Below are positions 1,781 to 21,322 of a DNA stretch of 50,998 bases, one piece after another (position 1 is the stretch's first letter; every line of letters begins with the position of its first letter). This DNA comes from a virus. Taxonomy: Duplodnaviria; Caudoviricetes. Below the pieces are notes generated by a model. That model was given only the letters and a program-made list of their open reading frames with translations, was not told the origin of the DNA and ran no database searches. Both the position numbers and the translations under genes were made by a program. The DNA lies in IMG/VR virus record IMGVR_UViG_3300037424_003017, positions 1-50,998 of that record. One strand, 5' to 3'.

Positions 1781-3265
1781 TCAAGTACGCCAGTGGATGG
1801 TGACGGTGTGCTCGGGGGAGACGGTGATCTTTTCACAGAGCGCCGTCAGGAGACGATGGACGACGACGGGGTCGTCTTCCTGCACCCATTCGTGGAAGTG
1901 GGTCAGATCGGGGAATTGATCGGTGATCTCGGCACGGAGTTGTGCGGCGTTCTCCCCTTTTTCGAGTTCGAGGCGCAGGGTTTCGAGCTGGTTCTCCAGC
2001 TCGGTGAGTTTGGCTTTGGCTTCGAGGGGTGTATAGACTCCGCCTTCGAAGCCTTCCTGTACGCGCTTGCGGCGTTTCTGAATGTCCTCCATTGCCGACT
2101 GATAATGACGTTGGGAGTCTTCCTGTTTGTCTTCGAGGGGTTGTGCCTTGTACTTTTGCAGTTGTTCTGCGAGATGGCGCGCCACCAGGTCGACGCCTTC
2201 CGGATAGGGAATGATGACGTGAGCGGGTCCGGCTTCGCAACTAAGGACCTTGCGACGTTGGTACTCGGCATGTCCATGGGACCGGCGGTGGAGTTTGCGT
2301 CCGCAGACGGAGCAGACCAGGAGCCCGGACAGTGGGAAGCGAGCGGCAAAGTGGCGATTCGTTGTATAGCGGCGTTCCATTTCCCGGACGAGGGAACGAT
2401 GCGTGGCTTCATCCCACAGCGCTTTATGTGTGCCTTTGCCGACCGTCCATTTGGCGTGCGGTAGTTCGACCTGGCGTTTCTGGTTCTTGCGGCGGAGGTC
2501 ACGGACCTGCTGAGATTTGTTGAGGGTGACCAACCCGGCATAGTATGGATTGGTGAGGATGTATTTGATGGTGGAGAGATCCCAGTGTTCGCCGCCGTTG
2601 GGTGGAAGGATTCCGGACTGATCAGCGTGCTGGGTGATGGATGTGAGGGAGCGTCCCTGTAGGAACAGGTTTTTGCATTGGATGATGAGGGCGGCTTTTT
2701 GCGGCTCGAGCTCGGGCGGTTGTTTCTTTCCGATCCATCTATACCCGAAGGGGACGCGCAAGGGTGTGAGTCCGCGGGCAATGCGAGCGGGCATTCCGAC
2801 TTTGTATTTGCGCCGCAGGTCGTTGATGCGGAAATTCTGGGTGATGCGATGAACATCACGCATGATGGATTCATTCTCGGATGTGTAGGGGTCGAAGTGA
2901 TCTGGGTCCTGCGGTTCCGCCGGCTGACTGACGGAGTAGAGTTGTTTGCCGTAGAAGCGCAGGGAGTTGGCCACCATATCGGCGAGATCTCCCAGCCTGT
3001 CGTATGAATAGATGACGAGAACGTCGAAGAGATTGTTGCGGGCATCTTCGAGCATTTGTTTGAGTTGGGGGATGTCGTTCTCGGCATCATTAAGGTTCAC
3101 GTAAAAGGAGCGTGACGCACCAGGGACGATGTAGGGTCCTGATGTCTCCTGCCAGTTATGCGCAAGCGCGGCGCGGCGTGCGTTCTCTTCCTGTTGTTGG
3201 AGGGAGACGCGATCGGGGGTGGCTTGTTGTTGGGTCGAGACTGCCGACCAGATGGAGAAGCGCAT
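1781..3265 (-). CDS. large serine recombinase (prophage integrase)
   Basis: N-terminal WSAVS..QQ...SL..Q catalytic region, YDRLG, PFGY, ILTNPYYAG recombinase domain, LSGLLVCSVCG zinc ribbon, coiled coil. Confidence 0.93.
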   Translation of the reverse strand: MRFSIWSAVSTQQQATPDRVSLQQQEENARRAALAHNWQETSGPYIVPGASRSFYVNLNDAENDIPQLKQMLEDARNNLFDVLVIYSYDRLGDLADMVANSLRFYGKQLYSVSQPAEPQDPDHFDPYTSENESIMRDVHRITQNFRINDLRRKYKVGMPARIARGLTPLRVPFGYRWIGKKQPPELEPQKAALIIQCKNLFLQGRSLTSITQHADQSGILPPNGGEHWDLSTIKYILTNPYYAGLVTLNKSQQVRDLRRKNQKRQVELPHAKWTVGKGTHKALWDEATHRSLVREMERRYTTNRHFAARFPLSGLLVCSVCGRKLHRRSHGHAEYQRRKVLSCEAGPAHVIIPYPEGVDLVARHLAEQLQKYKAQPLEDKQEDSQRHYQSAMEDIQKRRKRVQEGFEGGVYTPLEAKAKLTELENQLETLRLELEKGENAAQLRAEITDQFPDLTHFHEWVQEDDPVVVHRLLTALCEKITVSPEHTVTIHWRT

Positions 3266-15823: not shown

Positions 15824-16810
15824 ATGAAATTAATGGCTGTGGTTCGAGATGCGTTACGAACGAAGGGATATGCCTATAAAACCGAGAAGGCGTATTTGAA
15901 TTGGATCCGCAGATATGTACGCTTTCATTTACCGAGTCATCCGCGGGACGTGGAAACCGAGGGTGTAAAGAAATTTTTAACACACCTGGCAGTTGATGGC
16001 AATGTGAGCGGCGGAACGCAGAACCAGGCATTGGCGGCGTTATTGTTTTTGTATCGGGTTCTTGAAGTCGAACTTGGTGACATCGAGATGGTGCGTGCAA
16101 AGAAGGACAGGCGTTTGCCAACTGTTCTCTCTGTCAATGAAGTGATGCAAGTGTTGGAGAATATGACTGGCGTGTATCGCATCATGGCTGAGATCATGTA
16201 TGGAGGCGGTCTGCGGTTGAATGAATGTTTGAAGTTGAGGGTGAAGGATGTGGATATGTTCAATCGCCGAATCACATTGAGAGATACGAAGAGTAACTGT
16301 GATCGGGTAACGTGCCTGCCATCATCCGTTATTCCGGCACTGCAATTACATTTAGTGAAAGTTCAGGCTCAACATACAGAAGACCTGGCAAGTGGTTATG
16401 GCGAGGTCGAACTGCCGTTTGCGCTTGAGAAGAAATACCCGCGCGCACCGTTCGAGTGGGGATGGCAGTACGTTTTTCCTGCGGCACAGTTTTCGACTGA
16501 TCCACGAAGCGGTCATGTGAGACGGCATCATATTTTTGAGACGAGTGTCCAGCGGGCAGTGAAAGAGGCGGCACGGAAGGCGAAGATCGCAAAGCCTGTG
16601 GGTCCACACACGCTGCGCCATTGTTTTGCAACTCATCTTTTGGAAGGAGGCACAGATATTCGAACAATACAAGACTTGCTTGGTCATAAAGATTTGAAAA
16701 CGACGATGGTTTATACACATGTCGTTGGGGGCTCGGCAGTACGCTCGCCGTTGGATCGGAATTTGGAACTGCGTGAGGGGATTATGCGGCGCGTAGTTGT
16801 AGAATCATGA
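15824..16810 (+). CDS. intI: integron integrase (tyrosine recombinase)
   Basis: [33 protein letters not shown], IntI-specific insert [42 protein letters not shown], catalytic VYTHV; intact. Confidence 0.95.
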
Positions 16811-16874
16811 GTTGTGCGTCGCTCGGGGAGCCTGAGTACACGCCCCCGCTCGCTGGACGCACAACGGGGCGCGA
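16811..16874 (+). repeat. type I cassette leader (64-bp exact direct repeat)
   Basis: Identical to 18413-18476. Confidence 0.9.
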
Positions 16875-16914
16875 AATGCAATTCGCAATCGTGCTATTAG
16901 AAAGGATGTCAATT

Positions 16915-17232
16915 ATGAACGATGAAGCCTTGCAAGAAGCATCAAAGAAACTACGAAAACTGAGGCTTACTGATGTAGGCGGGCGCAAAGAGCATCCTGC
17001 CGACACTGTCAAGTCTGTTTTCGAGAGGGGATTAGGTGGCATGTACGATGACGACGCAATCACATATGTACTTCGGTGGGGTATCAAGTATTACCGCGAC
17101 GCACAACTGCGAATTGGAGCAGACGATGCGGGACATACTTGCCCCTCCTGTAAGGGGCTTCGTATTGTGCGAAACAGTGACGGATTGGGTAGTCAAGATT
17201 GTCCCGCCTGCAAGGGAACGGGGCAAGCATGA
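16915..17232 (+). CDS. cassette 1 protein with C-terminal CxxCxG zinc finger
   Basis: GAAAGGA RBS; CPSCKG..CPACKGTG encoded inside attC1. Confidence 0.75.
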   Translation: MNDEALQEASKKLRKLRLTDVGGRKEHPADTVKSVFERGLGGMYDDDAITYVLRWGIKYYRDAQLRIGADDAGHTCPSCKGLRIVRNSDGLGSQDCPACKGTGQA

Positions 17233-17269
17233 ACGCCCCGCTCGCTGTTCATTTCGCGCCCCGTTGGGC
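17101..17269 (+). other. attC-like site 1
   Basis: GCACAAC-TGCGAATT-GGAGCAG ... CTGTTC-ATTTCGCG-CCCC-GTTGGGC. Confidence 0.75.
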
Positions 17270-17302
17270 GGCTCCCTTGCCAACCAGCAGAAAGGTAAAA
17301 CG

Positions 17303-17554
17303 ATGAACGAGAAGAAAATTATTGAAACACTAGAAATGATTGTTCAAGATATGGCGGATGATGCAAAGAATTTTGATGGTAAGCCATTCACTGGTCGCAC
17401 AGTTGCAGAGTATTTCGGTAATCAGGGTGCGGCAATTGCGGCTCTTGCTAACATTGTCAAATCTTTGGTTGAAAGCCGCCCAACATTGCGTGCAGTTGAC
17501 CCGCCTTCGGCTCTGGTGGGCGGTGGTAATTATGAAAATTCGGCGGGCAACTAA
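17303..17554 (+). CDS. cassette 2 hypothetical protein
   Basis: GAAAGG RBS; reads through attC2 and stops in the L' box. Confidence 0.75.
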   Translation: MNEKKIIETLEMIVQDMADDAKNFDGKPFTGRTVAEYFGNQGAAIAALANIVKSLVESRPTLRAVDPPSALVGGGNYENSAGN

Positions 17555-17569
17555 CGTCAGCCGTTGCGA
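17478..17569 (+). other. attC site 2 (canonical geometry)
   Basis: GCCCAAC-ATT-GCGTGCAGTTG ... CAACTAACGT-CAGCC-GTTGCGA. Confidence 0.85.
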
Positions 17570-17648
17570 CGACACTGCGCTCCCCCCAACGAACGGGGGG
17601 GCTTGGTCGCCGCAATGGGCGCGGCGTAAAACGTAGAGTTGCGGCGCT
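17563..17648 (+). repeat. type II cassette leader
   Basis: GAC(A/G)CTGCGCTCCCCC..GGGGGGCTTGGTC core; related copies at 17973-18056, 18854-18941 and 19830-19914. Confidence 0.88.
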
Positions 17649-17682
17649 TCATGAAAAATAAGTATTTTGATAGGAGAATAAA

Positions 17683-17913
17683 ATGGCTAGACGTGACACA
17701 AATATAATCTTGAGGTGTACCTTGGAAGATAAAAGGATGTTGAAAGAACTTTGCAAACGATTGGATATGAATCAATCACAAATTATTCGTAAACTTATCA
17801 CTGGCTCGTTTAGAATTTTCAAAGAGGAAGACGCTTTGCTAGACACGAGCGCCGCAACTCTACGTGCACCCGACCAGAGCGGGAGAAAACGTAGAAATGG
17901 CAATAAAAAGTAA
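17683..17913 (+). CDS. cassette 3 ribbon-helix-helix-like protein
   Basis: IILRCTLEDKRMLKELCKRLDMNQSQIIRKLI; AGGAG RBS. Confidence 0.7.
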   Translation: MARRDTNIILRCTLEDKRMLKELCKRLDMNQSQIIRKLITGSFRIFKEEDALLDTSAATLRAPDQSGRKRRNGNKK

Positions 17914-17979
17914 AGTTGAATTCATAGAATTGGTGCGTGGCATTCCCGCTCTGGACGGGCGACGCCGCGCCCATTGGGC
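17852..17979 (+). other. attC-like site 3
   Basis: CCGCAAC-TCT-ACGTGCACCCG-ACCAGAGCGGGA ... TCCCGCTCTGG-ACGGGCGACG..CCC-ATTGGGC. Confidence 0.75.
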
Positions 17980-18081
17980 TGACGCTGCGCTCCCCCAAAG
18001 TGCGGGGGGCTTGGTCAGCCCAATGGGGCGAGCGTAGGAACGCAGAGCCGGGCTGCCCCTGAAAGGAAAAAGGAGTTGCTA

Positions 18082-18402
18082 ATGAACGTATTGACTAATT
18101 CTGAAAAATATCAAGCAATGAGAGACGCGCTGAATGAGTACTATTGGGATAATAGTATCTCGCCAGAAGCAACGGCGGCAATGCTCAATACATTTGCGGC
18201 TGAGGTGTCTCGACTGGCTAAATTCATTCAGGATAATTGGTCTGCCCCTGACCCGCGCAGCCCAACTCTGCGTGCACCCGTCCTATCCGAGCAGAAATGC
18301 CCTTATTGCAATGGCAGGAAAAAAGTATATGCGTGGTTCAAATGGATACGATGTGCTGTATGCAACGGGACGGGCATTTCAACCCGCTCGGATGGCGGGT
18401 GA
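18082..18402 (+). CDS. cassette 4 protein with C-terminal CxxCxG zinc finger
   Basis: AGGAG RBS; CPYCNG..CAVCNGTG inside attC4. Confidence 0.75.
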   Translation: MNVLTNSEKYQAMRDALNEYYWDNSISPEATAAMLNTFAAEVSRLAKFIQDNWSAPDPRSPTLRAPVLSEQKCPYCNGRKKVYAWFKWIRCAVCNGTGISTRSDGG

Positions 18403-18419
18403 CGCTCGCCCCGTTGTGC
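18260..18419 (+). other. attC-like site 4
   Basis: GCCCAAC-TCT-GCGTGCACCCG ... CGGGTGACGC-TCGCCCC-GTTGTGC. Confidence 0.8.
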
Positions 18420-18514
18420 GTCGCTCGGGGAGCCTGAGTACACGCCCCCGCTCGCTGGACGCACAACGGGGCGCGAGATACATTTCTCAGTTGGCTCCGA
18501 AAGGATATAAAAGT

Positions 18515-18823
18515 ATGGCAAAAACTCTAGTCAATGAAACTGTGTTGGAAGGCGTAATATCAGCACGTATAAACGATGATGATTCGCTAACTATTATGGT
18601 TCGCTACATAGGTACAGATGAGCAGTGGTCATGGGAAGATATTATTGCTTTATCACCGGAAGGTGTGAAAGTTTTACGTGACTTGCTCGACCGCGACGCA
18701 CAACTGCGAAATGAAGCGGACGATGTGGGGCAGACATGCCCCTTGTGTGGGGGAAGGCGGGTTATCCTAAGTGGAGACACGAAGATATTGTGTCCTGCCT
18801 GCACAGTGACGGGGCATGTCTAA
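18515..18823 (+). CDS. cassette 5 protein with C-terminal zinc finger
   Basis: GAAAGGA RBS; CPLCGG..CPACTVTG inside attC5. Confidence 0.75.
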   Translation: MAKTLVNETVLEGVISARINDDDSLTIMVRYIGTDEQWSWEDIIALSPEGVKVLRDLLDRDAQLRNEADDVGQTCPLCGGRRVILSGDTKILCPACTVTGHV

Positions 18824-18860
18824 ACGCCCCACTCGCCGCTTATCTCGCGCCCCGTTCGTC
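18698..18860 (+). other. attC-like site 5
   Basis: GCACAAC-TGCGAAATGAAGCGG ... CCGCTTATCTCGCG-CCCC-GTTCGTC; same family as site 1. Confidence 0.75.
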
Positions 18861-18956
18861 GGACGCTGCGCTCCCCCCAACGAACGGGGGGGCTTGGTCC
18901 GCCCAATGGGGCGAGCGTAGGAACGCAGAGCCGGGCTTCGCTGAAAGGAAAAAAGA

Positions 18957-19202
18957 ATGATAACAAAAAGTGATGCACGTAAAATTCTTGAAGAAACATG
19001 CGGTGAATACATTGCCGTTGATGACGAGTTGGCAGCAAGGGTGGCTGATGGGTTCAATGCAATCCTCGACTCGCGCAGCCCAACTCTGCGTGAAGCTGCT
19101 CCGCCCATTCGTGAAGCTGTGTGCGATTGCTTGGCACTTCACAATGCGCAAGAAGTTGCAATCAATCACTGTTTTGCGTGCGGGAAACCGCTTCACTCAT
19201 GA
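18957..19202 (+). CDS. cassette 6 protein with C-terminal Cys cluster
   Basis: GAAAGGA RBS; CDC..CFACG inside attC6. Confidence 0.72.
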   Translation: MITKSDARKILEETCGEYIAVDDELAARVADGFNAILDSRSPTLREAAPPIREAVCDCLALHNAQEVAINHCFACGKPLHS

Positions 19203-19235
19203 ACGGGCGGGCAGCTTACGCTCGCCCCATTCGGC
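19078..19235 (+). other. attC-like site 6
   Basis: GCCCAAC-TCT-GCGTGAAGCTGC-TCCGCCC ... GGGCGG-GCAGCTTACGC-TCGCCCC-ATTCGGC. Confidence 0.78.
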
Positions 19236-19261
19236 GGCTTCATCGCTCGAAAGGTTGAATT

Positions 19262-19627
19262 ATGACAGATAGAATCCCCGCACAATGTTTTCACCCTGGC
19301 GAATATATCAGGGATGAAATGGAAGCTCGTAAATGGGATGTAGCCGAGCTAGCAAAGCGAATGAGTGTACATGATATGCCCGTTGAAATTGCGGTGTCAC
19401 TCATCGAGTGCGAACAAGACATTACGCCTAGTATTGCTTTTGGTTTGCGCCGCGCGTTTGGAACGTCCGCCGATTTGTGGATGAATTTGCAGAAGGCTTT
19501 TGATGTATGGCAAGAAAGCCGCCCAACACTGCTTGCAGCGGACGTCTTTGAGTCGGAGCCAAAATGCTACTGCCCTGCCGATGGTGTTTACCCTGGTTGT
19601 CCTGTTCATGGCAACCGCCGCCGCTAA
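19262..19627 (+). CDS. higA: cassette 7 HigA-family antitoxin-like HTH protein with Cys/His tail
   Basis: HPGEYIRDEM, ITPSIAFGLRRAFGTSADLWMNLQ; tail CYCP..GCPVHG inside attC7. Confidence 0.8.
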   Translation: MTDRIPAQCFHPGEYIRDEMEARKWDVAELAKRMSVHDMPVEIAVSLIECEQDITPSIAFGLRRAFGTSADLWMNLQKAFDVWQESRPTLLAADVFESEPKCYCPADGVYPGCPVHGNRRR

Positions 19628-19636
19628 AGCTTGCCG
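19521..19636 (+). other. attC site 7, R' box lost
   Basis: GCCCAAC-ACT-GCTTGCAGCGG ... CCGCTAAAGC-TTGCC followed by GAG instead of GTT. Confidence 0.65.
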
Positions 19637-19836
19637 AGCAGAATTCGGCTTTTACTTATGGCGCTGTGCCGTATGCACCAATAAAAGATTTGCTTGGTTA
19701 TCTTGAACTTGATTTGGAGAACCGTGAGCTAGACGACAAGGATCATTGGGAAGAAGTGTACCAAGTTATTAATGAATGGCTTCACACGCCGAATTCTAAC
19801 CGCTCGGCAGGCGGGTGATCCCGCGCCCCGTTCGTC
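19632..19836 (+). pseudogene. unit 8: cassette remnant (inner stem, coding loop and right arm of an attC4-type site)
   Basis: TGCCGAGCAGAATTCGGC pairs with GCCGAATTCT-AACC-GCTCGGCA; frame ends NRSAGG* like cassette 4 TRSDGG*; no own RBS or start seen. Confidence 0.6.
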
Positions 19837-19930
19837 GGACGCTGCGCTCCCCCAAACTACGGGGGGCTTGGTCCGACGAATGGGCGAGCGTAGGAACGCA
19901 GAGTTGTCTGCGCTCAATGAAAGGAAAATC

Positions 19931-20173
19931 ATGTCGCCTGAAGAACTTGAAGAATTGCAATATCACATTGCCTGGGCTTTGAAACATGCGCAACGTGCGG
20001 TGGAGGCTGCAAAGAAAGCTGATGAGTTTCTTGACAAGCTCGCCACGCAGCGCAGCCCAACTCTGCGTACACCCGTCCATGAGCGGGAGTGGGTTTGCTT
20101 AAAATGTACAACAACAAACATGCTTGATGTTCCTATCTGTCAGGCGTGTGGGGCGTCCCGCTCAGGCGGGTGA
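19931..20173 (+). CDS. cassette 9 protein with RanBP2-type zinc finger
   Basis: GAAAGGA RBS; WVCLKCTTTNMLDVPICQAC fits W-x-C-x2-C-x3-N-x6-C-x2-C, inside attC9. Confidence 0.78.
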   Translation: MSPEELEELQYHIAWALKHAQRAVEAAKKADEFLDKLATQRSPTLRTPVHEREWVCLKCTTTNMLDVPICQACGASRSGG

Positions 20174-20190
20174 CGCTTGCCCCATTAGGA
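20055..20190 (+). other. attC-like site 9
   Basis: GCCCAAC-TCT-GCGTACACCCG..TGAGCGGGA ... TCCCGCTCA-GGCGGGTGACGC-TTGCCCC-ATTAGGA. Confidence 0.78.
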
Positions 20191-20199
20191 TTCTTTCTT

Positions 20200-20400
20200 A
20201 TGGACAAAATACTCTCTGGTATCGAAGATGTACCTGCAATCGCAGATGATAAATGTGGCGTTTGCGGAACGCAATTGACGAAAGAAAACTTTAGTGATTG
20301 GTTTATCTTTGTCAAAAATGATGGTCAAATGTATCAAGTGCCTTGTTGTAACCCTTGCCTAGCAGAAAGAGGTAAGGGTGGAGAAAAGGTTTATGAATAA
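20200..20400 (+). CDS. cassette 10a small Cys-rich protein
   Basis: CGVCG..CCNPC; AGGA before ATG. Confidence 0.6.
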   Translation: MDKILSGIEDVPAIADDKCGVCGTQLTKENFSDWFIFVKNDGQMYQVPCCNPCLAERGKGGEKVYE

Positions 20401-20575
20401 CGACACACATGTTTACCCATTGAACGACTTGCAAGAACATGTCCTCGAAGGCGTTGAGTGTCCGTGCAATCCTACAGTAGAAGTAATTGGAGCAGACCTG
20501 TTGATAATCCATAATGCTTTTGACAACAGGGAAGTGGTCGAAGAGGCTATTGCCATAATGAATGGCGAAGCCTAA
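20393..20575 (+). CDS. cassette 10b small protein
   Basis: HVYP..D..EH....CPCNP..IHNAFD; stop TAA lies in the GCCTAAC R'' box. Confidence 0.7.
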   Translation: MNNDTHVYPLNDLQEHVLEGVECPCNPTVEVIGADLLIIHNAFDNREVVEEAIAIMNGEA

Positions 20576-20602
20576 CACTTGCCGTTGAGAAGGAGATCGC
20601 AA

Positions 20603-21322
20603 ATGACATCACACGGTATTTTGATGAGCGATGAAATGGTACGGCAATATCTCGCCGGCAGGAAGATCATGACCAGGCGCACTCGTGGGTTGGATGTTAT
20701 CAATAAGAGCCCTAATCACTGGACATGTCGTGGGCTATCTTCGTCTGGTGATCATTTCGTTTTCGACAGTCTGCCTTTGCCTGATCTCCCACGGCAAAAG
20801 ATCAAGCCTCCCTATGGGTATATCGGTGACGAATTATGGTTCAAAGAGTGTTTTCAGGTGATTTTCCCCTTACCTGTTGTATCTACTGACGGCAGGGTTC
20901 ACATGCAGGAGTGGAGTGGAAGGCTTCCAAAAACTAAACACGTGAATTTCACTACGGTCTATCGAGCCGATGATGCTAAACGATTCTCTGGCTGGAGACC
21001 CTCGATATTTATGAATAAATGGGCTAGTCGTATAGTCACTAGGGTACGCAGTATTCGTGTGGAGCGATTGCAGGACATCGTCCATCACTCCTATGAAGCA
21101 AAACAAGAGGGCTTCGATTACCTGGGAACTTTCGATGACGTTCAATGGCGCCCTGGTGTGGATACCGGCAAATGTTACTTCATCGATTATTGGGACTCGT
21201 TGAATGCAAAGCGCGGCATGAGTTGGGAGTTCAATCCGTGGGTGTGGGTGTATGAGTTTCCGCAGTATTCTCCCTCACCCCAGCCCTCTCCCGCTGGGAG
21301 AGGGGGAGAGGTGGATGGTTGA
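20603..21322 (+). CDS. ASCH/PUA-like phage protein
   Basis: GRKIMTRR, GDELWFKE, WRPSIFM.KWASRI, NPWVWVYEF motifs. Confidence 0.7.
   Translation: MTSHGILMSDEMVRQYLAGRKIMTRRTRGLDVINKSPNHWTCRGLSSSGDHFVFDSLPLPDLPRQKIKPPYGYIGDELWFKECFQVIFPLPVVSTDGRVHMQEWSGRLPKTKHVNFTTVYRADDAKRFSGWRPSIFMNKWASRIVTRVRSIRVERLQDIVHHSYEAKQEGFDYLGTFDDVQWRPGVDTGKCYFIDYWDSLNAKRGMSWEFNPWVWVYEFPQYSPSPQPSPAGRGGEVDG

Follow-up and report, generated by a model that had tools for sequence, protein, structure and literature searches.

Loops of attC sites are conventionally regarded as non-coding, sequence-free DNA, and to our knowledge attC sites that encode protein had previously been obtained by design only. In canonical integrons, such as class 1 integrons and the Vibrio superintegron with its VCRs (Nivina 2016, PMC5027507, available text), IntI carries a specific insertion, the R box reads AAC/GTT, the L box is paired, two extrahelical bases lie 6 bp apart, and cassettes are bounded at G|TT and share one orientation, all of which recurs in the locus described here. 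In those systems ORFs end at or before the R'' box, whereas here they cross the site and the L' box gives the stop; in addition, the loops are here under protein-level constraint, intI is co-oriented with the array with attI at its 3' end, and six cassettes have antisense leaders together with longer 3' spacers. The chromosomal integrons of Anaerolineales belong to the same attC sequence family and share its 7+9 arms and L-box variants, with IntIs 51-55% identical, but differ in their large cassettes (median 766 nt), in ORFs that mostly stop before attC, in loops that evolve without codon bias and in an intI that is divergent where seen (L172, L393, L394).

Integron parts and cassette methyltransferases are also known from phage genomes. 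The survey of phage-borne integrons and CALINs by Qi et al. 2023 (PMC9892861) reported 3 complete integrons in 10,705 genomes, with Chloroflexi and zinc unmentioned in its main text, whereas here a whole phage family carries integrons with coding attC sites. The GenBank entry for Virus Rctr41k (KX853513.1, a partial genome) belongs to this family, and the attC of its Rctr41k_16 encodes a tail with four Cys. Among the relatives, cassette methyltransferases were recognised by eye in L001 and are annotated in KX853513.1.

Two further systems come close to coding attC sites. The short ORFs in attC and ORF-11 in attI1, as treated in the available part of the review PMC8876359, likewise involve translation over a recombination hairpin and a proposed aid to downstream expression; they are separate mini-ORFs whose sequence is of little matter, whereas here it is the main ORF that continues into the loop, whose peptide is conserved. 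The synthetic coding attC sites of Nivina 2020 (PMC7439510, available text) can encode a peptide yet recombine, and module shuffling was proposed for them; they are engineered and their frame spans the crossover, whereas those described here are natural and their stop precedes it. No natural protein-coding attC was found in print, although paper supplements could list further phage sites, and coding attC sites appear to be a variant of integrons not known before.

The reading that we favour, and hold to be fairly probable, is that of a phage-resident integron whose cassette ORFs enter attC, where the conserved L' TAA/TGA would serve as in-frame stop and long loops would supply C-terminal mini-domains (about 4 in 10 Cys-rich, with a conserved peptide sequence and a predicted capacity to bind zinc). 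Cassettes are likely moved whole, by IntI at G|TT, and heads (the N-terminal parts) and tails (the parts encoded by attC) likely find new partners through a separate exchange in short conserved stretches at either end of the head. Within this reading, read-through, frame matching, Cys conservation, head/tail mosaics and G|TT cassette boundaries are documented by sequence comparison.

The integron of the window

The window, that is, the whole stretch of 50,998 nucleotides analysed, is a prophage, and its host likely belongs to Anaerolineales, as indicated by one gene and by the attC family. In this prophage setting an intact integron integrase is co-oriented with nine cassettes, all features being on the + strand. 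IntI (15824..16810, 328 aa) scores 416.5 bits against TIGR02249 (cut-off 265), has the IntI-specific insertion and retains the motifs GLR, DTK, HTLRH, HKD and TMVYTH, whose residues we take to be catalytic; it falls among the IntIs of phages and metagenomes (12 rows, support 81/97), separately from a chromosomal IntI group (4 rows, support 98/99). Its TGA stop codon abuts the first G|TT, the crossover point (16811|16812) of a candidate attI at 16790..16817. A GTT lies 0-10 nt past the intI stop in co-oriented relatives, the first cassette after intI differs among them, and a contig of run X1 is identical across intI and then, from 16813, carries a different cassette. Across phages the same tails have different neighbours after GTT, which marks the cassette boundary at G|TT, and in all loci with sites every attC lies on one strand. 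Whole-cassette movement by IntI at G|TT is the likely mode of mobility.

As the preliminary description had it, ORFs 1-7 and 9 cross the R'' box at CAAC; each has an RBS of AGGA/GGAG type, and they stop within L' (ORFs 2, 4, 7 and 9) or in the loop or inner stem (ORFs 1, 3, 5 and 6). Heads measure 40-86 aa and tails 20-47 aa. The heads do look unrelated, no cross-match among them being better than E 0.75, and six of the eight tails are Cys-rich, those of ORF2 and ORF3 having no Cys. In six cassettes the attC base is copied, in antisense, into a leader on the 5' side; these leaders, each mirroring the attC of its own cassette, had escaped the preliminary description. Leader 1 (16812..16894), which also holds a gene-less hairpin, precedes ORF1 (16915..17232), with a 62-aa head and a 43-aa tail with two CxxCxG motifs (CPSC..CPAC), and attC1 (17101..17269, 169 nt), in which AAC is 8 nt from the first extrahelical base and the 3' arm is 12 nt (fold z -3.4). 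The leaderless ORF2 (17303..17554) joins a 58-aa head to a 25-aa tail ending at the L' TAA of attC2 (17478..17569, 92 nt), a site with the 7+9 spacing typical of the family and a modelled circle whose minimum-energy fold is the canonical one. Leader 3 (17564..17648), which forms an 18-nt perfect inverted repeat (17631-17648/17848-17865), precedes ORF3 (17683..17913), with a ribbon-helix-helix head (Pfam RHH_9, E 7e-5) and a 20-aa basic tail stopping in the loop of attC3 (17852..17979, 128 nt, 7+11).

Three leader-bearing cassettes follow: leader 4 (17974..18056), ORF4 (18082..18402; 59-aa head, 47-aa tail CPYCNG..CAVCNGTG, stop at the L' TGA) and attC4 (18260..18419, 160 nt, 7+11); leader 5 (18414..18497), ORF5 (18515..18823; 61-aa head, 41-aa tail with the CxxCxG pair CPLC..CPAC) and attC5 (18698..18860, 163 nt, 8+12, fold z -5.2); and leader 6 (18855..18941), ORF6 (18957..19202; 40-aa head, 41-aa tail CxC..CxxC) and attC6 (19078..19235, 158 nt, 7+11). 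ORF7 (19262..19627), again leaderless, has a HigA-family antitoxin head (TIGR02607, 51.4 bits against 47.7) and a 35-aa tail CxC..CPVH that stops at the L' TAA of attC7 (19521..19635). Leader 9 (19831..19915), an antisense copy with one base missing, precedes ORF9 (19931..20173; 41-aa head, 39-aa RanBP2-like tail, stop at the L' TGA) and attC9 (20055..20190, 136 nt, 7+11). These tail motifs, and the length of sites 1, 4, 5 and 6 from R'' to R', are as first reported. The preliminary description needs correcting at sites 7 and 8: site 7 has a coding tail but lacks R', with no GTT past its 3' spacer, and site 8 (19636..19836) is a remnant of a long, attC4-type site, comprising the inner stem, an open 60-codon loop frame and the 3' arm. 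A single deletion would have removed its head, R'' and L'' together with the R' of attC7. The site-8 loop peptide resembles the head of an L356 cassette (33% over 39 aa), a likeness that stands alone, since a systematic tail-versus-head search gave no match. A collapsed attC (20570..20590), with R'' joined to 3' spacer and GTT, ends the array, and the ORF preceding it stops within its TAAC.

AAC is present in all eight R'' boxes, and R' has GTT at sites 1, 2, 4, 5 and 8 and ATT at sites 3, 6 and 9. Bottom-strand folds beat shuffles at sites 1, 3-6 and 9 (z -2.2 to -5.2) and are no better than shuffles at sites 2, 7 and 8 (z -0.3 to -1.0). Compensatory change is seen in the L boxes of the family, which are complementary in 114 of 127 viral sites (shuffle mean 20, maximum 34), and 121 of the 127 show G-T pairing on the bottom strand at the first position of L. 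Window sites 2-6 have a paired L box and two extrahelical bases 6 bp apart, the attC rule according to the available text of PMC7439510; the first of these bases lies at position 8 or 9 past AAC, position 9 being the better one in that source. A 3' spacer of 9 nt is the rule in the family (215 of 250 sites), but it measures 11-12 nt in the window's long sites, whose modelled circles favour a non-canonical fold by 17-38 kcal/mol, so that use of the long sites by IntI is not assured. An Rfam search returned 2 matches only, at chance level, and promoter and terminator scans gave no excess over shuffles (9 versus 5.4 and 3 versus 5.9, respectively). Of the 3 runs listed as holding the sequence none was of RNA, which weighs on neither side.

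Read-through and frame matching across the phage family

ORFs read into attC in 91 of 134 phage cassettes, whereas among the cassettes of arrays with this attC type in bacterial genomes 4 of 32 do so. By a bounded count the ORF ends before attC in 24/134; an earlier viral count for this class (71/219) was dropped, as it was inflated by the ORF of the previous cassette. Only 8/134 phage ORFs continue past R', and 32 of the 91 read-through ORFs terminate before L'. The frame of the L' stop equals the entry frame in 83/115 cases (p 2e-17), compared with 8/17 where the ORF stops in R''. Site length follows frame, making the L' TAA the stop, and in L135 versus L003 and L056 the loop frame is preserved although a 1-nt length change shifts the entry frame. 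The preliminary description had attributed read-through to CAAC in place of TAAC; as a requirement this is ruled out, because most relatives cross TAAC in another frame.

Read-through is probably favoured by the placement of the array, which is aligned with genes of the phage itself, so that hairpins left untranslated would cut the expression of what lies downstream. The median untranslated gap is 39 nt with read-through; for ORFs that stop in R'' it is 112 nt. In class 1 integrons untranslated stretches reduce downstream expression (PMC11511950, available text), but, against this mechanism, the same text has attC deletion altering downstream expression in a minority only of class 1 cassettes.

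Head and tail mosaics

One head does occur with different loops, as was to be looked for at the outset: among homologs the HigA head of ORF7 is found with several other tails, including a site-9-type finger (P0012), and also tail-less, and four other heads carry the site-7 tail. That such fusions arise by normal attC x attC exchange, as first suggested, is contradicted by the position of the cut. This exchange normally cleaves G|TT in R' (available text of PMC5027507), downstream of the stop codon, so that head and tail travel together and fusions need another route. Breakpoints are located at the R''/L'' arm and, where a cassette has a leader, at each end of the head, which fits short-homology recombination and site-specific exchange alike. 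The most likely means of re-pairing is recombination between short homologies, in the R''-L'' arm and, where a leader is present, in the RBS/ATG region too. The antisense leader for its part would probably dampen recombination of the cassette to which it belongs, by giving it a three-way junction fold. Some Logan contigs have joints at which a whole cassette, head or loop is skipped; these were not counted as activity, as their sides are under about 40 nt and mostly of low likeness and may stem from related phages.

Alternatively, IntI itself might shuffle domains, top-strand cleavage at the R'' AAC joining the head of one cassette to the tail of another, a reading that we consider rather unlikely. 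Low-frequency top-strand recombination at R'' exists for some sites (PMC5027507, available text), and it would suit the L352 junction, where a plain-type tail comes after a head of leader type, immediately past the R'' AAC, as well as 10 aligned pairs in which identity extends to the R''-L'' arm and each L' fits its own L''. The phage sites also lack the bottom-strand stability bias typical of attC sites, which equally tells against the favoured reading (109/247, mean +0.17 kcal/mol; the bottom strand is more stable in 100/160 genome sites). Between L352B and L378b, however, identity stops about 7 nt ahead of R'' and just ahead of the ATG; mixed top- and bottom-strand events would invert cassettes, yet no locus has sites on both strands; and a single IntI crossover would uncouple leader from tail, yet 25/35 leaders match their own site and none the preceding one.

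A further possibility, also improbable in our view, is that leader and tail form a reusable chassis that takes a coding head between RBS/ATG and R'', such that these elements build new cassettes and do not only move them. Where heads are unrelated but the leader type is shared (25 pairs), identity drops to background level past the ATG and is regained 7-12 nt ahead of R'', although these pairs are not independent, and one head (about 91% identical) occurs in two different, internally matched leader and tail sets. The modelled fold pairs both head ends, and the leader-to-R'' distance in 27 cassettes is mostly 171-178 nt (12) or 237-246 nt (12; other, 3), and head lengths form two classes that differ by about 67 nt. 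These lengths also showed a 70-nt period (R 0.50 overall, 0/500 null sets), which weakened to p 0.02 without the first peak, the best period then being 40, and the claim is thus limited to two size classes. On the other hand, the pattern would equally result from double crossover between existing cassettes with selection, or from gene conversion; an empty chassis was not encountered, and head/tail mosaics and size classes are likewise present in plain, leader-free cassettes. In its fullest form, put forward tentatively as an unlikely but serious option, the locus would be a protein-building integron in which leader and attC tail, as a self-pairing chassis, grip both ends of a head of fixed size class, allow its in-frame replacement and provide a ready-made zinc-ribbon tail and stop.

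Tail peptides and the meaning of coding attC sites

CxxC occurs in the ORF frame of 28/115 loops versus 12/230 in the other frames. C-x2-C is found 40 times, against 10.3 in residue shuffles and 3-9 for other spacings, at a density per 100 aa of 1.61 in tails versus 0.47 in heads. In 11 attC4-type loops the three Cys that were not fixed by the search are invariant (11/11) with TGC/TGT exchange, and unpaired Cys and Gly are invariant with synonymous change. Two of the checks proposed at the outset, dN/dS and Cys conservation, concur: dN/dS is 0.20 in 3 Cys-rich loop pairs (codon-position changes 12/8/23) versus 0.90 in 38 non-coding genome loop pairs (124/123/121). A phage 'untranslated' control (5 pairs, 0.66) was excluded because it contains two misclassified read-through pairs. 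Together with frame matching and swapped heads and tails, these data uphold the original proposal that the loop is a slot for C-terminal modules.

The idea that the loops hold zinc-finger modules may apply to the six Cys-rich window tails but does not extend to most of the family: at least three Cys are found in 26/65 sites of 120 nt or more and in 2/48 shorter ones, the other 39 of the 65 long sites holding fewer. The ORF9 tail (W-x-C-x2-C-x3-N-x6-C-x2-C) exactly fits what we take to be the RanBP2 zinc finger consensus, and matches PF00641 at E 2e-4 with 21 bits, under the cut-off of 27, as all Pfam tail matches are. The CxxCxG tails share motif spacing with the ribbons of DnaJ, anti-TRAP and UvrA, as the finger-like tail does with RanBP2; they have only two CxxC (one predicted site) and no J domain, and are like one half of the DnaJ zinc domain; against PF00684, with its four CxxCxGxG repeats, they score 15-18 bits versus a cut-off of 32.7. 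A profile of the ORF4 tail matches the DnaJ zinc domain 1exk (E 2e-6) and, more weakly, anti-TRAP and UvrA, and its model (pLDDT 70, pTM 0.41) has a beta-hairpin between the Cys pairs; Foldseek with this model returned nothing at E<=0.001. The Cys-rich tails are predicted to bind zinc, and a translated loop of about 70 nt would just fit a one-zinc ribbon, a small fold able to finish an otherwise unstructured tail.

It is very unlikely that read-through merely carries ribosomes over the hairpin, with tail sequences passive. Short ORFs in attC boost downstream translation (review PMC8876359, available part, citing Jacquier 2009), the HigA homologs without any tail would agree, and in non-Cys tails dN/dS is 0.71 (5 pairs); such a reading may apply to short and non-Cys tails. 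The low dN/dS of the Cys loops, the constancy of their unpaired Cys and Gly amid synonymous change, and the excess of C-x2-C over other spacings argue against it. Finally, TGC/GCA-rich attC arms and Logan contigs that break at repeats, none spanning the array, might suggest that GC-rich palindromes are read through by chance or that the assembly is at fault. This is ruled out by frame and genome controls: the signal is absent from the other frames and opposite strand of the same loops and from non-coding arrays with this attC type, shuffled sequence (915 kb) contains 0 sites, and error-free contigs from two runs cover most of the array.

For the annotation of attC loops, it follows that cassette ORFs must not be trimmed at attC. 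Selection is visible on the loop peptide, the host arrays of the same site type being a built-in control, and a single sequence here gives a natural example of an ssDNA recombination substrate that is also a protein domain. Matched leaders, size classes and mapped junctions are tractable handles on how cassettes are made; if the chassis reading were true, it would offer a natural route to new cassettes and two-part proteins and would bear on the origin of integron cassettes. In the phage family itself, with sites in 113 viral loci (some overlapping), attC sites are employed as gene ends.

The prophage, its integron and the attC family

In the window, a single 51-kb record, the host genes HPF and folE at the left end precede a recombinase gene and the rightward phage genome, which encodes ParB, RusA, a DnaA-N protein, terminase, portal, capsid and tape-measure proteins. 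The large serine-type recombinase (1781-3265, minus strand), which lies beside folE and has weak XisF/Ccr matches, is the likely prophage integrase. HPF matches were present in four of the five genomes searched (54-85% identity), and since the 85% match to the window HPF comes from a genome titled Anaerolineales MAG, the host would belong to the Anaerolineales. A short palindromic repeat (21267-21310), which drew matches from numerous unrelated contigs of each of the three runs, is probably a REP-like element of the host.

The integron integrase gene, intI (15824-16810), has the same orientation as the array, and its product reaches 416.5 bits against TIGR02249 (cut-off 265), with both the catalytic motifs and the IntI insertion present. 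Its stop codon directly abuts the first GTT. In these phages, intI and the array are in line with the phage genes; chromosomal intI genes are divergent wherever seen. An internal TAA occurs in two of the four chromosomal intI matches (L394 and L395; L and P numbers denote loci and homologous proteins used for comparison). Relatives share the same candidate attI context and differ in their first cassettes, and a contig from sequencing run X1 is identical over intI and then enters a different cassette at 16813, which together support the predicted movement of whole cassettes at G|TT. Around 20200-20590, the array gradually gives way to ordinary phage genes, with two further small Cys/His-rich ORFs, no clear attC between them and a collapsed attC at the end.

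Related sites were sought in viral and genome sequences with a 20-base pattern of the 5' arm, which returned at least 144 viral stretches (about 160 estimated) and 190 genome stretches, the titles among 80 listed being mostly Anaerolineales or Chloroflexota. When the two arms were defined independently of each other, 114 of the 127 viral sites had complementary L'' and L' (shuffle mean 20, maximum 34; 32 further viral 5' arms without a 3' motif lie outside the 127), as did 128 of the 153 genome sites. Because L'' and L' covary in this way, the family sites are called attC-type hairpins. A structural finder detected 250 distinct viral and window sites, on one strand only within each locus, and did not detect any in shuffled loci totalling 915 kb. 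A bottom-strand stability bias was absent from the phage sites (109/247). The 3' spacer measures 9 nt in 215 of the 250 sites and 11-12 nt in the long sites of the window, and loop interiors in viral and metagenome loci fall into size classes near 5, 36-43, 52-58, 68-77 and 102-107.

Of the nine window sites, six form folds more stable than those of shuffled sequences. R' is missing from attC7, and "site 8" consists of the loop and 3' arm left from an attC4-type site that has lost its 5' part; the two losses can be read as one deletion. The peptide of the broken site 8 loop (19636-19818) shows a resemblance (33% over 39 aa) to a cassette head in L356, so that head sequence may end up within a loop.

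Coding attC sites and their tails

The reading of ORFs into attC in the window is confirmed: all eight ORFs described as reading through R'' (1-7 and 9) do so, each with a RBS. The stop is in L' for ORFs 2, 4, 7 and 9, the other four (1, 3, 5 and 6) end in the loop or the inner stem, and their heads, the parts before attC, are indeed unrelated (best E 0.75). Six of the tails, the parts encoded inside attC, are Cys-rich as stated, and tails 2 and 3 are not. The HigA-family antitoxin cassette (19262-19627) has no evident toxin gene adjacent and may be a lone antitoxin or regulator.

Read-through was counted only for cassettes with the previous attC seen, merging sites more than 90% alike. In the phage set, which includes the window, 91 of 134 cassettes have an ORF that enters attC (stopping in L' in 51, before L' in 32 and beyond it in 8), 24 end before attC, 15 stop in R'' and 4 are unclear. 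The same holds for 21 of 30 cassettes in metagenome loci and for 4 of 32 in bacterial genomes, a set that may hold prophages and in which 22 end before attC. By these counts, read-through into attC is a phage trait. A few ORFs (L047, L071) continue beyond R' into an in-frame fusion with the ORF of the next cassette.

Of 115 read-through sites, 83 have an entry frame, picked from upstream sequence alone, that equals the L'-stop frame (p 2e-17; 61 of 91 in a stricter set); among sites stopping in R'', 8 of 17 do. The length of attC modulo three tracks the entry frame, and one loop peptide is kept despite a changed entry frame via a one-base length change (L135 vs L003 and L056). When the ORF stops in L', a median of 39 nt goes untranslated before the next start (n=56); when it stops in R'', the median is 112 nt (n=14). 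In class 1 arrays, expression downstream of untranslated stretches is reported to be lower (PMC11511950), and a review citing Jacquier 2009 (PMC8876359) describes relief of the hairpin by short ORFs lying in attC. In these phages, whose array is in line with the phage genes, read-through was probably favoured for sustaining expression of the genes downstream.

CxxC occurs in the ORF frame of 28 of 115 loops; the other top-strand frames have it in 12 of 230 cases and the bottom-strand frames in 6 of 345. The C-x2-C count is 40, compared with 10.3 in residue shuffles (maximum 21 in 1000) and 3-9 for other spacings, and tails hold 38 CxxC in 2363 aa vs 51 in 10867 aa of heads. A search in which the leading Cys-Pro and the closing Gly-Thr-Gly were the only set residues found 11 attC4-type loops with different heads; in these, the other three Cys and one Gly are invariant, TGC and TGT exchange at the invariant Cys and neighbouring residues vary. 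Two more sites (L351, L377) combine attC4-type arms with a loop that is longer, non-Cys and likewise in frame. In a small sample of independent equal-length loop pairs, dN/dS is 0.20 for Cys-rich loops (3 pairs) and 0.71 for non-Cys loops (5 pairs); non-coding genome loops give 0.90 (38 pairs; 124, 123 and 121 changes by position). These measures place the Cys tails under protein-level constraint. Three or more Cys are found in only 26 of the 65 sites of 120 nt or more and in 2 of 48 shorter ones, the remaining tails being basic, hydrophobic or low-complexity in appearance. A nine-tail profile matches the DnaJ zinc domain (E 2e-6); the tail structure model is moderate (pLDDT 70), and Foldseek returned no significant match to it, the top weak ones being UvrA and DnaJ zinc modules.

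Mixing of heads and tails

The same head does occur with different loops. The HigA head of ORF7 carries several different tails or none (28 homologs), including a site-9-type finger (P0012), and the site-7 tail is found on four other heads (P0028-30, P0033). The ORF4 head is joined to non-Cys tails (L376, L002, P0003) and to another Cys tail (P0002), and its tail to other heads (L364, P0004, P0005). In L052 and L096, heads 88% identical to each other carry two different fingers. Across 10 aligned pairs, identity extends into the R''-L'' arm and ends there, each L' fitting its own L''.

The preliminary interpretation, that the loop serves as a slot for C-terminal domains and that attC x attC exchange or loop swapping could build new fusions, is partly supported. 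IntI cleaves the bottom strand in R' (PMC5027507), and because this normal crossover lies downstream of the stop, head and tail would move together. Fusion would need short-homology recombination in the conserved arm, top-strand cutting at R'' or repeated cassette building. Short-homology exchange is favoured, since the best-resolved case breaks away from AA|C, at both head ends; top-strand cutting at R'' is known, and is orders of magnitude rarer (PMC5027507). In L352 (2332-2675), a leader-type head is followed by a plain tail directly after R''.

Antisense leaders and dual-use sites

Six cassettes start with a leader of 80-90 nt, missed by the preliminary description: cassettes 1 (16812-16894), 3 (17564-17648), 4 (17974-18056), 5 (18414-18497), 6 (18855-18941) and 9 (19831-19915). 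Each leader is a GC-rich hairpin, with a conserved C-run/G-run, followed by a reverse-complement copy of the base of attC in the same cassette, covering both arms as far as the first extrahelical base. A pattern search found 3 viral and 35 metagenome stretches (leaders in L350-L390). Of the 35 distinct leaders, 25 agree, with one mismatch at most, with the 3' arm downstream in their own cassette, and none agrees with the preceding site; the set comprises 13 variants, with 8% cross-matching. Truncated contigs and one-base indels are among the 10 misses, as are plain cassettes, which have no leader, joined at the leader's far GTT; L355 shows such attachment at 1200-1290 and 2985-3080.

When the cassettes are modelled as circles, leader and attC arms pair in a three-way junction, which lies 17-38 kcal/mol lower than the canonical fold forced on the same circle; the circle of plain cassette 2 has no such fold penalty. 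The antisense leader probably acts as a recombination damper. A bolder reading would make leader and tail a chassis for cassette building. In same-leader cassettes, identity stops at the ATG and returns 7-12 nt before R'', so that leader and tail are matched and heads change; one head occurs in two different matched leader/tail sets, with 10 differences in about 114 columns. In 24 of 27 cases, 171-178 or 237-246 nt separate the leader from R'', and plain cassettes have head-length peaks near 155 and 225 nt (88 unrelated heads). These head and loop size classes resemble SSB footprints of 35, 56 and 65 nt (PMC5737091), so far a numerical coincidence only.

A survey of 10,705 phage genomes reported 3 complete integrons and 17 CALINs (Qi 2023, PMC9892861), and its main text mentions neither Chloroflexi nor zinc. 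Coding attC sites have been made by design (Nivina 2020, PMC7439510); our literature search, which covered main texts mostly from outside subscription journals, found no paper describing natural attC-encoded domains. GenBank Virus Rctr41k (KX853513.1; L392) holds the same system unannotated, with a co-oriented intI and five detected sites, and its Rctr41k_16, annotated as hypothetical, has a four-Cys attC tail. Translation of the tails, zinc binding and recombination by IntI are predictions; as read from sequence, these are dual-use attC sites in a phage-resident integron family, here with an intact IntI and matched antisense leaders.
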